This document shows positions 2,493 to 11,701 of a stretch of DNA of 64,000 nucleotides, one piece after another; position 1 is the stretch's first letter; each line of letters begins with the position of its first letter. Under the pieces are notes generated by a model. It ran no database searches and was not told the DNA's origin. It saw nothing but the letters and a program-made list of their open reading frames with translations. The position numbers and the translations under genes were made by a program. Origin of the DNA: Shigella phage sb1; sequence record PQ666539; one strand, written 5' to 3'.

Positions 2493-2966
2493 TTATTTGA
2501 ATGATTTGACGTACTGAATAGAACCTTTGCTATTCACGAAAGCGATTTTACCATTTTTGTTATAAATGGTATCAGTACGCTGATAACCATAAGTTTGCTT
2601 ACCAGATTGATAACCAACTAATGCAAAATTATCTTCGCCCATTTTATTCTGTTTGGCGCGGATACGTTCATGACCGTGCGCCATAAGAACCTTAGCATCG
2701 CCAGTTGAAATTGATCTACGAGTTTTTTCATCTTCAACTGTATTAACAAAGTCGTCAAATGAATCAAATTTAGCATGAGATTTATTATACAGTTTTCCAT
2801 CTACTGCATAATTATATCCCTGTACATCCATCTCAACTTCTGTACCATCATCCAATACAGCAGTAATTTTTTGACCTTTTTTAAATTTCAAAAGATCAGT
2901 AAAAGATTCAGCGATAATTTGAGAATTAATAGCTGCTTCAGTAATAAATTCTTGATATGTTTTCAT
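2493..2966 (-). CDS. internal head protein (IP family) with capsid targeting sequence
   Basis: N-terminus MKTYQEFITEA matches T4 IP capsid-targeting sequence consensus; AAGGAAA RBS. Confidence 0.6.
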   Translation of the reverse strand: MKTYQEFITEAAINSQIIAESFTDLLKFKKGQKITAVLDDGTEVEMDVQGYNYAVDGKLYNKSHAKFDSFDDFVNTVEDEKTRRSISTGDAKVLMAHGHERIRAKQNKMGEDNFALVGYQSGKQTYGYQRTDTIYNKNGKIAFVNSKGSIQYVKSFK

Positions 2967-2975
2967 ATGTTTCCT

Positions 2976-3392
2976 TTAAATGTAAATATTTTTGCCGTAA
3001 TACTTATACCAGTATGGCTTCATTAAAATTTTTTCATCGAGTCGTTGTTGACTCAACTTAATATCTGATTTTCATGGATTATAATAATTTTTACATTCTG
3101 CTGGAATATCGCTGATGTCAGGAACTTCAGTATCTTTTATACTAAACCCACGTTTTAAGCATTCCATTATAATGTCTGATTGACGCTTTCGCAAAAATTC
3201 TAACTTATCGTAAAAGAACGTAACATGACCAGAACCTAAAATAAACTCGGAAGATATTTTAAAATCTTTAACCCGTTTACCATTTGCCACGTGTTTACGA
3301 ACTATACCAAAAACACGTGGCAATTCACGGTATTCTGCGATTAAATGTTGATCAGCAAGTTCAGATACTAAAGTCAAATTAATACGAGTCAT
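2976..3392 (-). CDS. denV: endonuclease V (pyrimidine dimer glycosylase), interrupted by in-frame TGA at 3072-3074
   Basis: [17 protein letters not shown]... matches T4 DenV; frame continues after TGA (SQQRLDEKI...WYKYYGK) to 138 codons total as in T4. Confidence 0.8.
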
Positions 3393-3451
3393 TTTATCTC
3401 TCCAAGTAATTGTAAATATACTATCGCAGTTTTAGGAGAAAATAAACAACT

Positions 3452-3946
3452 TTATAGATTTTTATACGCGTCCCAAGTTCCGGTCCTAAACGTAGCGATG
3501 ACTCGTTTTGCACGGTTAGGTGTTTGATTATACCATCTACTTTTATCTAAGTTAACTGCCGCTTCATCCCAGCGTTTTTGCTGGAGCATGCGTAAAGAAT
3601 TAGTAAATCCTGCTACGCCGGTTTCTCCCATTTGGAAGACCATATTAATCAACGCACAGCGGCGAACAGCATCAAGAGAATCATAAACTGGTTTTAATTT
3701 AGCATTTCTCAGAATTCCGCGAACAGCAGCATCGACATCCTGATTAAAGAGTTTTTCAGCCTCATCTTTTGTAATTACACCATTGCAATTACGCCCAATA
3801 ACTTTATCTAATTCAGATTTAGCAACACTTAGTGATGGACTTTTAGTAAGCAAATGACCAACGCCAATAGTGTAATAACCTTCTGTGTCTTTATAGATTT
3901 TAAGTCTAATACCTTCATCTATACGTAACATTTCAAATATATTCAT
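3452..3946 (-). CDS. e: lysozyme (endolysin)
   Basis: 164 aa, near-identical to T4 lysozyme ([12 protein letters not shown]...[10 protein letters not shown]). Confidence 0.97.
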
Positions 3947-3959
3947 AATACCTCCTAAG

Positions 3960-3967
3960 TATTTATA
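3960..3967 (-). promoter_or_regulatory. T4 late promoter TATAAATA
   Basis: exact TATAAATA on minus strand upstream of e. Confidence 0.6.
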
Positions 3968-3972
3968 GAAGG

Positions 3973-3980
3973 TATTTATA
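3973..3980 (-). promoter_or_regulatory. T4 late promoter TATAAATA
   Basis: second exact TATAAATA upstream of e. Confidence 0.6.
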
Positions 3981-3982
3981 AA

Positions 3983-4438
3983 TTAAAAGAGGTTGTTCAT
4001 TATTCTGTAAAGTGAAGGACCCATCACATATTGCCACTGAGTACAAGGAATAAGAGCAAAAGCATCCATCTCTGGAATCATAACGCCATCTTTATTTTCA
4101 AAATAAGACTCACAATGGCAATTTCTAAACATCTCATGCTCTACTGGAATCGTATAATAAAATAGCTGTAAGTCTTTATTACTAGAATATTTAAATACAC
4201 CTAGGTCTTCTAAAAGGTCTGGATTATAATTACTAAAGCCAGTCTCTTCTAAACATTCTCTTTTTGCAGCTTCCAGTGCATTCAAATCAGAACTTTCTAC
4301 ACGCCCCTTTGGAATATCCCAGCGATGTGCCATCATTCCAGGTTTACGAGAACCGGTAACTCGTCCCATAAATAAATCTTTATCTTCTGTCATAAAGATA
4401 ATACCAGCTGATAATGTTTTCATTTTAATTTCCTGCAT
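3983..4438 (-). CDS. nudE: Nudix hydrolase
   Basis: 151 aa directly downstream of e as T4 e.1/nudE; Nudix-box-like REx2EExGF segment. Confidence 0.75.
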   Translation of the reverse strand: MQEIKMKTLSAGIIFMTEDKDLFMGRVTGSRKPGMMAHRWDIPKGRVESSDLNALEAAKRECLEETGFSNYNPDLLEDLGVFKYSSNKDLQLFYYTIPVEHEMFRNCHCESYFENKDGVMIPEMDAFALIPCTQWQYVMGPSLYRIMNNLF

Positions 4439-4908
4439 TCAGTGATAAAATTATTTAAATTTTGAGCATATTTCTTTTCATCAAAAATCTTTTGTTGCTT
4501 GCGCATCCGCCATGGCATTTCAATGAACATGTACCATATTCCTGATAATATTGATGCTGTAAAAATATTAACAAGTATGGTTAAAAGAATCCAATCTCCT
4601 ATTCTGTCCATTGGATTTTTTATAAAAAAGTAAAATACGAATGATGACACAGGAAGACTAATGATATACCACAGAATAACCATCTTATCTGTGAACCATT
4701 CAGCATTCGTTAATTTAGCACGACCATTATGAATGCACACGAATTTATCGTCTGTTATAGTAGATGGCTTAACTGGTTGATATCCCATTCTAAACTCCCT
4801 AATCAACAAATTTTTCATATCTTCGGAACAGCCATTCCAATCAACTCTATCAACTGGAATGCCATCATCCCCATCATCTAAATCATACCAGTGAGTTTTT
4901 AAAATCAT
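4420..4908 (-). CDS. small membrane protein, paralog family member D
   Basis: two hydrophobic TM segments then basic stretch and C-terminal NFITECRKLK; ATGA overlap with upstream gene. Confidence 0.55.
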   Translation of the reverse strand: MILKTHWYDLDDGDDGIPVDRVDWNGCSEDMKNLLIREFRMGYQPVKPSTITDDKFVCIHNGRAKLTNAEWFTDKMVILWYIISLPVSSFVFYFFIKNPMDRIGDWILLTILVNIFTASILSGIWYMFIEMPWRMRKQQKIFDEKKYAQNLNNFITECRKLK

Positions 4909-10227: not shown

Positions 10228-10314
10228 TGGCGCGAGAATTGGGACTCGAACCCACAAGGAAATCATTCCGCAGCATTTTAAGTGCTGTGCCTTTACCAAT
10301 TTGACCATTCTCGC
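10228..10314 (-). tRNA. tRNA-Leu (anticodon TAA)
   Basis: class II tRNA, anticodon loop CTTAAAA, T-loop TTCGAGT. Confidence 0.85.
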
Positions 10315-10315
10315 G

Positions 10316-10388
10316 CTGGGAATAAAGGACTCGAACCTTTGCATCCTGGAATCAAAATCCAGTGCCTTACCAACTTGGCTAATTCCCA
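10316..10388 (-). tRNA. tRNA-Gln (anticodon TTG)
   Basis: acceptor TGGGAAT/ATTCCCA, anticodon loop TTTTGAT. Confidence 0.85.
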
Positions 10389-10485
10389 ATTATTAACAAA
10401 GGCTCTTAAGCAAGAACCCTTGATGATAGAGGGTATTAATCAGTGCGATATGAGTTAATAATAACAAATAATTCTTAAAGCATAT

Positions 10486-10773
10486 TTACCATTTATGATA
10501 ATACATATTTACGATACATTCAAGAACCAAAGGATTCTTGAAAATATCATATTCAAGAGGACCTTTTTCTGTTTCAATAAAGAAATCAAAATTTACTGTA
10601 TTAAATGTACGTTCTTCCTTTACTAATTTAACTTGAGAAGATGAACGGCCAATGTAAACCCTTTCAACTTCAAAATATGTTAAAATGCCATAATCATCAA
10701 TCAAAGCTTTAGCCGCGTCTTGATCATATTTATATCCATTTTCAATGGATGATACTTTCGCATAAAGAATCAT
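10486..10773 (-). CDS. hypothetical protein
   Basis: 95-aa ORF, ATG start. Confidence 0.45.
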   Translation of the reverse strand: MILYAKVSSIENGYKYDQDAAKALIDDYGILTYFEVERVYIGRSSSQVKLVKEERTFNTVNFDFFIETEKGPLEYDIFKNPLVLECIVNMYYHKW

Positions 10774-10775
10774 TA

Positions 10776-11186
10776 TCAGCCTTCATCAACAATAGTGTGC
10801 GTATTAGCATTTACGATTTGCCACCAATCAAAGCGATTAGAACCATAATCTGGTTTGTTTTCATTTTCTTTGATAATGTCACGGAGTTCATCTTCTGTTT
10901 CAGCATACGCAATTAAATCATCATATCCACCACAAGGATAATAATTATCACCTGCGAATAAAAGAAAATTTACCTTAGATGGATTTACGTAATAATGGTC
11001 TTTAGGATATTTAGTTCCTCTCCAATCAATTACTTCAACATAACGATAAGAAAATCCATTTTTACTTTCAATCCAACTCCACGCTTCAAAAGGAGTATTA
11101 AAAACTTTATCAGGTATTAAATTACCTTCAAAATGAGAAGGATTTGCATAATCCCCAGCATAAACATAGTATTCGTTAATACTCAT
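10776..11186 (-). CDS. hypothetical protein
   Basis: ORF track 10776..11225; ATG 11186 behind AAGGTGA RBS. Confidence 0.5.
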   Translation of the reverse strand: MSINEYYVYAGDYANPSHFEGNLIPDKVFNTPFEAWSWIESKNGFSYRYVEVIDWRGTKYPKDHYYVNPSKVNFLLFAGDNYYPCGGYDDLIAYAETEDELRDIIKENENKPDYGSNRFDWWQIVNANTHTIVDEG

Positions 11187-11187
11187 A

Positions 11188-11373
11188 CTATTCACCTTTA
11201 GAAATTTTATCCATAACGATAGCAATTAAACCAATTAAAAATGCTACTACAAGTGAAAAAACATTTTCTGCTTTAGTCAATAATCCGCATATAAATCCAA
11301 CAAACATTGAAAAACTAAAAGCAGAAGCAGAAATTGCAATAGCAACATTTCGAATTAATTCACAACGTTTCAT
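11188..11373 (-). CDS. small hydrophobic membrane protein
   Basis: 61 aa, mostly hydrophobic; early promoter cassette upstream. Confidence 0.45.
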   Translation of the reverse strand: MKRCELIRNVAIAISASAFSFSMFVGFICGLLTKAENVFSLVVAFLIGLIAIVMDKISKGE

Positions 11374-11394
11374 TTTATTCTCCTCAGTAGTTGA

Positions 11395-11455
11395 TAGGGT
11401 AATAGTATCACAACTAAAACCCTATGTAAACAACTTTGTGAAATTATTTTAAATC
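11395..11455 (-). promoter_or_regulatory. early promoter with stem-loop (PeSL-like), copy 1
   Basis: minus strand GTTTAC-18nt-TACTAT, -10 inside ATAGGG/CCCTAT hairpin; upstream of 11188..11373. Confidence 0.45.
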
Positions 11456-11701
11456 TTCTAATCGTTTCTTCATCTTAGAACCATTTTTAGCAATTTCTCC
11501 TGCATCGGAGCATAATGCTAAAAGCGCTTTAACTTTAGTTTGATCTCCTTTAAAAGACGAAGGATCGACTGCAGCAGCAAGTTCTTTAATACGAGAGAAA
11601 AGACGCTCAGCTTCAGCTAAAGCCATTCCAAGCTTTACTTCCATACCGTGAGAAGATTCAGTAATAGTAGTTTTTGCAGCAAACTCTTTGAAAGTTTTCA
11701 T
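11444..11701 (-). CDS. ipI: internal head protein (ipI-like)
   Basis: MKTFKEFAAK... CTS-like N-terminus; position next to 57B as T4 ipI. Confidence 0.5.
   Translation of the reverse strand: MKTFKEFAAKTTITESSHGMEVKLGMALAEAERLFSRIKELAAAVDPSSFKGDQTKVKALLALCSDAGEIAKNGSKMKKRLEDLK

Follow-up and report, generated by a model that had tools for sequence, protein, structure and literature searches.

Four Shigella phage sb1 genes with T4-type capsid-targeting leaders as candidate internal-protein genes, two of them between e.8 and the tRNA cluster

Because they enter the cell with the phage DNA, internal proteins (Ips) are a phage's first line of counter-defense. Two of their names, Ip4 and Ip5, reportedly go back to the work of Repoila et al. 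on polymorphic loci (1994, EMBO J 13:4181), and this nomenclature is used in the GenBank records of T2, RB14 and RB51. As a general concept this has been established since 1994; it was functionally extended in 2025, and since then all three T4 Ips and one protein of phage Bas37 have been known as specific type IV restriction inhibitors. T4 Ip1, Ip2 and Ip3 each inhibit a different, defined GmrSD enzyme (PMC12373910), and Bas37_0260, a small protein with the same leader, or capsid-targeting sequence (CTS), and with its gene beside the Ip5 ortholog bas37_0261 at the ipI locus, inhibits McrBC (bioRxiv 10.1101/2025.11.20.689424) and shows that new leader-bearing open reading frames (ORFs) can be type IV restriction inhibitors. 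Silas et al. cite Repoila et al. 1994 for at least 10 Ips recognized via their signal sequence. Here we describe four minus-strand genes, ORF1 to ORF4 (Table 1), in a stretch of 64,000 nucleotides of Shigella phage sb1 (sequence record PQ666539; hereafter the window), which an initial annotation had proposed to encode dispersed T4-type internal proteins. The explanation that we favor, and consider moderately probable, is that all four genes encode such proteins, that their targets would be type IV restriction enzymes, and that a stop codon interrupting ORF3 is a sequence error.

Leaders, cleavage sites and processing machinery

At the level of sequence, each of the four genes was shown to combine a predicted capsid-targeting leader of 10-15 residues with an I/L-x-E cleavage site and a small basic product, and the cognate gp21 and gp22 genes lie nearby. 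A scan of the 64 kb in six frames matched the pattern MK[ST][YF]x[EQ]F four times, in each case at the start of one of ORF1 to ORF4; the average over 200 shuffles was 0.005 matches, or 0.09 with a looser pattern, so that four occurrences are far beyond chance. The N-termini read by the initial annotation (MKTYQEFITEA, MKTYAEFLTEA, MKSYTQFLNEA from 9167 downward, and MKTFKEFAAK) were all found where it had placed them, each preceded by a Shine-Dalgarno (SD) sequence. With a slash at the predicted cut, the leaders are MKTYQEFITE/A in ORF1, MKTYAEFLTE/A in ORF2, MKSYTQFLNE/A in ORF3 and the IPI-type MKTFKEFAAKTTITE/S in ORF4; they align with the T4 leaders translated from NC_000866, which are MKTYQEFIAE/A in both IPII and IPIII and MKTFKEFTSTTTPVSTITE/A (MKTFKEF...ITE/A) in IPI.

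Amber-suppression experiments on IPIII assigned residues 4 and 7 to capsid targeting and residues 8 and 10 to processing (Mullaney & Black 1996, according to the summary of that work in PMC9026906). Residues 4 and 7 are Y and F in ORF1, ORF2 and ORF3 and F and F in ORF4, as targeting requires, and all of the experimentally important positions are kept (an aromatic residue at 4, F7, I/L8 and E10, or ITE at 13-15 for the IPI-type leader of ORF4). A prohead protease motif after the CTS was what the initial annotation had suggested looking for, naming the lack of a cleavage site as evidence against its proposal; because every leader ends in I/L-x-E, such a site is present in all four. The gp21 motif (L/I)-x-E reads ITE/A, LTE/A and LNE/A at residues 8-10 of ORF1, ORF2 and ORF3 and ITE/S at residues 13-15 of ORF4, compared with IAE/A and ITE/A in T4. 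The predicted mature proteins, at 7.5-19.7 kDa with an isoelectric point (pI) of 8.95-9.46, resemble T4 IPI*, IPII and IPIII (8.0-20.4 kDa, pI 9.0-9.65).

The cognate prohead protease and scaffolding core are encoded within the same window (40637-42779), gp21 being the enzyme expected to remove the leaders and gp22 their expected docking partner. The reading of ORF1 to ORF4 as internal proteins on the strength of their predicted leaders is well supported by these features. To this extent the T4-type internal-protein signal claimed by the initial annotation held, through the leaders, the gp21 motif, the basic mature proteins and the presence of gp21 and gp22 in the window; that annotation did not recognize Ip4 and Ip5 as already named, and it overlooked the stop codon in ORF3. 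Its statement that the bodies are unrelated agrees with our pairwise comparison at the level of detection, in which no pair among ORF1 to ORF4 was significantly similar outside the leader.

Ip4 and Ip5 at the established loci

The window is a Tequatrovirus genome that aligned end to end with Shigella phage sb2 at 96.5% identity, and the 9.9 kb around the four ORFs matched 1162 phage records, of which Shigella phages sb2 and pSs-1 (Tequatrovirus) were the best at 96-97% identity. Its gene order is of the T4 type: vs genes, denV, e, nudE, e.2-e.8, a cluster of ten transfer RNA (tRNA) genes, trna.2-4, the ipI locus, 57B, 57A, gene 1, and baseplate, tail and head genes. ORF1 to ORF4 share with T4 IPI, IPII and IPIII the capsid-targeting leader, the I/L-x-E gp21 site, small basic products and polymorphic cassettes, and ORF4 occupies the same ipI locus; however, the mature bodies have no detectable similarity to those of the T4 proteins, and ipII and ipIII are absent between denV and e, where, as the initial annotation had noticed, they would be expected. 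Only 59 nt separate denV and e in the window.

ORF1 is 98.1% identical to T2 ip4, RB14 Ip4 and fD1 g129, and it matched the profiles phrog_3155, 'internal virion protein' (E 4e-100), and Pfam DUF7412 (E 3.6e-94). Genes of this type were found in 470 phage records, some annotated ip4 or IpIV, with Klebsiella and Salmonella T4-like phages at 67-70% identity. Judged by these matches, ORF1 is Ip4, an already named internal protein. Its start is 9 nt past the reading frame of denV, on the side facing vs.8, and because leader-bearing ORFs flank denV on both sides in RB69, the 'second Ip locus' spans e to vs.8 with ORF1 inside it. In T2 and RB14 there is no denV at the place of Ip4, whereas in the window Ip4 adjoins an apparently truncated denV on its vs.8 side. 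This denV stops early at a TGA (TGC>TGA), giving 106 amino acids (aa) rather than 138, and the sb2 record annotates an equally short denV of 321 nt. Because sb2 carries the same short gene, the truncation may be real in the sb1/sb2 lineage, unlike the other premature stops in the window that are described below.

ORF4 is 98.8% identical to RB14 Ip5 and to bas37_0261 and 97.6% identical to T2 ip5, and it matched phrog_3499, 'internal head protein' (E 3.9e-49), by which it is Ip5, again a protein that already has a name. Its neighbors are 57B and trna.4, which places it in the classical ipI locus, where T4 carries ipI. Ip5 is flanked by a direct repeat of approximately 94 nt. Within the repeat are the final codons of the preceding gene, a promoter of early type (TTTACA-17-TACTAT) and the SD/ATG, and an Ip locus is expected to have such a cassette structure. 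We rejected ORF4 as the McrBC inhibitor of Bas37, as it matches bas37_0261 and not bas37_0260; no bas37_0260 homolog was found in the window, and Ip5 stands alone between 57B and trna.4. The Ip4 and Ip5 of T2, RB14 and RB51 are the same genes as ORF1 (98.1%) and ORF4 (97.6-98.8%) at the same loci, with no substantial difference, and for these two our analysis adds nothing beyond public data that point to a CFT073-specific role of Ip5 (see below).

Directly upstream of Ip5 is 57B, which the HIDEN-SEQ preprint equates with Acb1, a nuclease acting against the cyclic oligonucleotide-based antiphage signaling system (CBASS) (bioRxiv 10.1101/2025.11.20.689424). On that identification, several counter-defense genes cluster near Ip5.

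Two families between e.8 and the tRNA cluster

With ORF4 in the ipI locus and ORF1 in the e-denV-vs.8 region, ORF2 and ORF3 lie outside both, at a polymorphic, cassette-built site between e.8 and the small-RNA/tRNA cluster at which T4 has no gene. Among eight phages, this site was empty in T4, held neither gene in T2, ORF2 only in RB14 and ORF3 only in fD1, and both genes in pSs-1, Bas37, VIPECOOM01 and the window. Orthologs of ORF2 are RB14ncORF136c (97.9%), bas37_0243 (98.9%) and the frameshifted RB69ORF148c/149c; those of ORF3 are fD1 g140 (98.1%), bas37_0244 (97.5%) and RB32ORF132c. By tblastn, 164 phage records contained ORF2 and 511 contained proteins of the ORF3 type, and all 60 and 45 of these, respectively, that were listed are 'hypothetical' or unannotated, or, in the case of ORF3, 'Phage protein'. 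The entries that represent this group at the same position (phrog_2280, RB69ORF148c-149c, RB14ncORF136c and RB32ORF132c) have no function or name, and literature searches by leader sequence or locus tag returned nothing relevant on either family in the papers available. A profile search of 5.8 billion proteins recovered only 26 clusters, none with a functional name, of which the named and long-contig ones came from T4-like phages. The RB69 copy of the ORF2 family (13429-13991 of locus L008) is annotated as two overlapping ORFs and is a frameshifted gene, and ORF2 or ORF3 is split in two in several other records.

Both genes matched phrog_2280 (ORF2, E 2e-53; ORF3, E 2.8e-59) and aligned with each other at 32%. 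We dropped the idea that they are paralogs, as removal of the leader left a blastp E of 0.12 and an hhalign probability of 2.4%, apart from a possible shared C-terminal D-x3-IK-x-RI motif. Because the leader-less bodies of the ORF2 and ORF3 types are not significantly related, phrog_2280 probably lumps two families.

Each of the two genes forms a cassette. ORF3 is preceded by a terminator, a canonical T4 late promoter (TATAAATA) and an SD sequence and is followed by a terminator; ORF2 has a near-consensus late promoter (AATAAATA) at -46, an SD sequence and a terminator behind it, and is a single gene between two intrinsic terminators. The terminators are three related blocks of approximately 40 nt, the SD and leader blocks of ORF2 and ORF3 form a 42-nt repeat (74%), and repeats flank Ip5 and ORF2/ORF3 alike, which is a cassette architecture. 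Ip4 and Ip5 occupy the two known polymorphic Ip loci, and ORF2 and ORF3 are autonomous promoter-gene-terminator cassettes at the e.8-tRNA site. From their leaders and predicted products, ORF2 and ORF3 are two further, mutually unrelated putative internal-protein families at a third polymorphic site. What is new here is modest, namely that two widespread 'hypothetical' families at this site appear to carry every sequence hallmark of internal proteins.

The same repeats allow another explanation, in which recombination between Ip cassettes copied a block of promoter, SD sequence and leader onto unrelated early genes, so that the leaders of ORF2 and ORF3 are passengers and bring no meaningful packaging. 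Besides the 42-nt repeat and the repeated terminators, this explanation can draw on the position of the e.8-tRNA site outside the two Ip loci recognized in the literature, and on the fact that no annotator, among the records listed, calls ORF2 or ORF3 an Ip. However, Y/F4, F7, L8 and E10 are kept in other phage genera, whose DNA is far too diverged for recent copying: the distant ORF3-family members of Yersinia phage fHe-Yen9-01 (MLEYSEFLKE) and Klebsiella phage KP01 (MKFKEFLAE) retain a CTS-like leader and an ORF3-type N-terminal domain, with a different C-terminal half. The mature pI, the size and the late promoter also suit internal proteins, and the ORF3 ortholog was detected in particles of Yersinia phage fD1, a close relative, for which virion proteomics marked g129 (Ip4), g146 (IpI) and the ORF3 ortholog g140 as associated with the particle and did not flag g139 (e.8) (PMC8309999 Table S3). 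We therefore consider passenger leaders quite unlikely, and return to ORF2 and ORF3 as candidate internal proteins.

The initial annotation had treated 8694-9167 as an ORF. This interval is not open; its in-frame TAG leaves a 33-aa ORF and a 107-aa remainder of ORF3. The affected codon is the Tyr within a conserved GKYSYKD in pSs-1, fD1, Bas37 and VIPECOOM01, and the TAG is private to the window, in that none of 186 phage records matched the surrounding 61 nt at 100%. When each sb2 gene was compared with its window counterpart, 23 of 77 genes in the window had premature stops, including those for gp23 (major capsid), gp22 (scaffold), gp17 (terminase), gp5, gp6, gp9, gp10, gp12 (a frameshift), gp27, gp29 and gp48. 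Most of the stop-creating changes relative to sb2 were GAA>TAA or GGA>TGA, and G>T and C>A substitutions (328) outnumbered those in the reverse direction (152). Because no viable phage could carry stops in gp23, gp22, gp17, gp5 and gp6, the window sequence looks error-laden, with a signature like that of oxidative damage and unlike a viable phage.

As 23 of 77 genes, gp23 included, carry premature stops, the TAG of ORF3 is very probably a sequence error as well. Its suppression by a phage tRNA is a less good explanation, with no CUA anticodon among the ten tRNAs, and so is a pseudogene in a window full of impossible stops. That ORF3 is a genuine pseudogene in sb1, an accessory gene in the course of being lost, might be read from the TAG itself and from family members in the protein database that carry natural truncations or frameshifts (P0015, P0017 and P0019), but the stops in essential genes, the excess of G>T and C>A changes and the privacy of the TAG among related records make it very unlikely.

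Function by analogy and transposon data

If the four proteins behave as T4 genetics suggests, the leader would dock each of them on the scaffolding core during prohead assembly, gp21 would cut after Glu10 (ORF1, ORF2 and ORF3) or Glu15 (ORF4), and tens to hundreds of mature copies would be retained in the head until they pass into the cell along with the DNA. By analogy, the injected proteins may then neutralize host defenses that act on incoming DNA containing glucosyl-hydroxymethylcytosine (glucosyl-hmC). We infer such an anti-defense role for ORF1 to ORF4 from Ip1, Ip2, Ip3 and Bas37_0260, and each protein would most likely target one particular type IV restriction enzyme, of GmrSD or McrBC type; whereas the T4 proteins inhibit defined GmrSD enzymes, targets for ORF1 to ORF4 are proposed by analogy only. 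Outside the leader, ORF1 to ORF4 had no significant similarity to the proven inhibitors IPI*, Ip2, Ip3 and Bas37_0260, a comparison with little power because the proven inhibitors are mutually unrelated.

Transposon data on the Bas37 orthologs were taken from the supplementary tables of the HIDEN-SEQ preprint (bioRxiv 10.1101/2025.11.20.689424), the main text of which is silent on bas37_0261, bas37_0244 and bas37_0243. The Ip5 ortholog bas37_0261 was non-essential (saturation 1.0), and its mutants were depleted 4.3-fold in the uropathogenic Escherichia coli (UPEC) strain CFT073 (log2 fold change (log2FC) -2.09, adjusted p about 0), and not in CFE299, CFE303 or CFE331. These values suggest that Ip5 matters specifically in CFT073. 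As this strain has a GmrSD homolog, c5421 (PMC4437046), the depletion may be a hint of a link with type IV restriction. The ORF3 ortholog bas37_0244 was likewise non-essential, with a saturation of 0.85.

Several observations weigh against the explanation that we favor. Packaging and gp21 cleavage in sb1 itself are predicted from the genes, and ORF3 as written in the window is truncated. The fD1 preparation was not clean, as 113-137 of the 277 phage proteins and 672 proteins of the host were recovered from it, and DenV, lysozyme and NudE were also flagged (PMC8309999); because of these many other proteins, it gives weak support for packaging. In Pfam, NCBIfam and PDB sequence searches, no body of ORF1 to ORF4 resembled a known anti-defense protein or a solved structure, and apart from DUF7412 for Ip4 the hits were noise. 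An AlphaFold model of the ORF3 family (predicted local distance difference test (pLDDT) 72.7) is all-helical: a flexible leader precedes an N-terminal domain of four helices, and a disordered Lys/Pro/Ala linker joins this domain to a long C-terminal helical hairpin. Foldseek searches of PDB and BFVD found for this plain helical protein no structural neighbor outside its own family, and for that reason the model gives no functional lead. Mutants of bas37_0244 had no fitness change between K-12 and CFT073, CFE303 or CFE331 (bioRxiv 10.1101/2025.11.20.689424). Finally, the ORF2 ortholog bas37_0243 (7029-7592 of locus L012) was hit at 1 of 48 TA sites (0.02) and called 'Essential', with its neighbors at 0.85-1.0; T4 ipI-III, in contrast, had a saturation of 0.91-1.0 and, like soc, were non-essential (bioRxiv 10.1101/2025.11.20.689424).

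The 'Essential' score of the ORF2 ortholog does not fit a dispensable accessory effector. ORF2, and possibly ORF3, could instead be a head-assembly or otherwise indispensable component of the virion, in which the leader would still bring entry into the prohead but the protein would be structural or required for growth on laboratory hosts too; to the near-absence of insertions in a gene 98.9% identical to ORF2 can be added that bas37_0243 stood at about 0 reads in every host tested. Nevertheless, T4 and T2 grow normally without the gene, it is frameshifted in RB69 and split in several records, and only 164 phage records hold it, compared with the 1162 that match the region. The call is odd for such a gene and may be an artefact: the dispensable late-region genes hoc, inh, wac, uvsW, segC and segE were also scored essential in the screen, no promoter is described for the acrVIA1 of the transposon in the portion of the preprint that deals with it, and ORF2 lies between two terminators with a late promoter that is merely near-consensus. 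We give an indispensable ORF2 a small chance. A combined proposition is also unlikely: that T-even phages have at the e.8-tRNA site a third Ip locus, so far unrecognized, and that its ORF2-type product, unlike every known Ip, is indispensable, or conditionally so on E. coli K-12; in that case ORF2-type proteins could be injected proteins that counter a chromosomal K-12 function to which this lineage, and not T4, is vulnerable.

Taking ORF1 to ORF4 again as candidate internal proteins, the ORF2 and ORF3 families (roughly 160 and 500 phages) would enlarge the catalogue of candidate inhibitors and add a third place to look for them, which matters for predicting the host range of T4-like phages used in therapy. 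Beyond the families themselves, transposon data already public show a host-specific phenotype for Ip5 and, unexpectedly, score the ORF2 family as 'essential'.

Table 1. Positions in the window of ORF1 to ORF4, their flanking elements and other genes named in the text
Feature	Coordinates	Strand	Description
ORF1, Ip4 internal protein (by sequence match)	2493..2966	-	157 aa; leader MKTYQEFITE; predicted mature 147 aa, pI 8.95
ORF2, unnamed CTS-bearing protein	8005..8568	-	187 aa; leader MKTYAEFLTE; predicted mature 177 aa, pI 9.46
ORF3, unnamed CTS-bearing protein	8694..9167	-	157 codons; leader MKSYTQFLNE; interrupted by TAG
In-frame amber codon in ORF3	9066..9068	-	codon 34, TAT/TAC to TAG; Tyr in all relatives
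ORF4, Ip5 internal head protein (by sequence match)	11444..11701	-	85 aa; IPI-type leader MKTFKEFAAKTTITE; predicted mature 70 aa, pI 9.2
Late promoter of ORF3	9208..9215	-	T4 late-promoter consensus TATAAATA; 48 nt upstream of ORF3 start
Intrinsic terminator	9222..9245	-	upstream of ORF3
Intrinsic terminator	8665-8684	-	after ORF3
Intrinsic terminator	7978-7996	-	after ORF2
Direct repeat, upstream of Ip5	11696..11789	-	69 nt at 84% and 25 nt at 84% between copies
Direct repeat, downstream of Ip5	11368-11459	-	
denV	2976-3392		stops early at TGA
e.5	5622-6236		ortholog bas37_0239
e.6	6278-6871		ortholog bas37_0240
tRNA cluster	9561-10388		ten tRNA genes
57B	11774-12229		directly upstream of Ip5
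gp5	15757-17484		interrupted relative to sb2
gp12	27783-29332		frameshift relative to sb2
gp17	33880-35712		interrupted relative to sb2
gp67	40637-40876		Pfam GP67 E 5.3e-37
gp68	40876-41301		
gp21, prohead core serine protease	41301..41939	+	Pfam Peptidase_S77 E 1.5e-110
gp22, scaffolding core protein	41970..42779	+	Pfam T4_CASP E 1.4e-43; two in-frame TAA codons in window sequence
gp23	42798-44363		interrupted relative to sb2
First alt-type gene	59925-61982		alt_1 and alt_2 in sb2
Second alt-type gene	about 61986-64000		

In the region around the four genes, the strongest depletion in CFT073 was that of the orthologs of e.5 and e.6, bas37_0239 (log2FC -3.62) and bas37_0240 (log2FC -6.49), each with an adjusted p of about 0, both of which were dispensable in K-12 (bioRxiv 10.1101/2025.11.20.689424). 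The genes e.5 and e.6 are candidate host-specific factors. The tRNA cluster of the window comprises ten genes (Arg, Asn, Tyr, Met, Thr, Ser, Pro, Gly, Leu and Gln) and lacks segB, whereas T4 has eight tRNAs and segB at this position.

Towards its end, the window holds two tandem genes for alt-type ADP-ribosyltransferases, which the sb2 record names alt_1 and alt_2. Alt is another packaged and injected protein that is processed by gp21. In Bas37, Alt counters Mokosh type I (bioRxiv 10.1101/2025.11.20.689424). The first alt copy carries an in-frame TAG at codon 178 in the window sequence.

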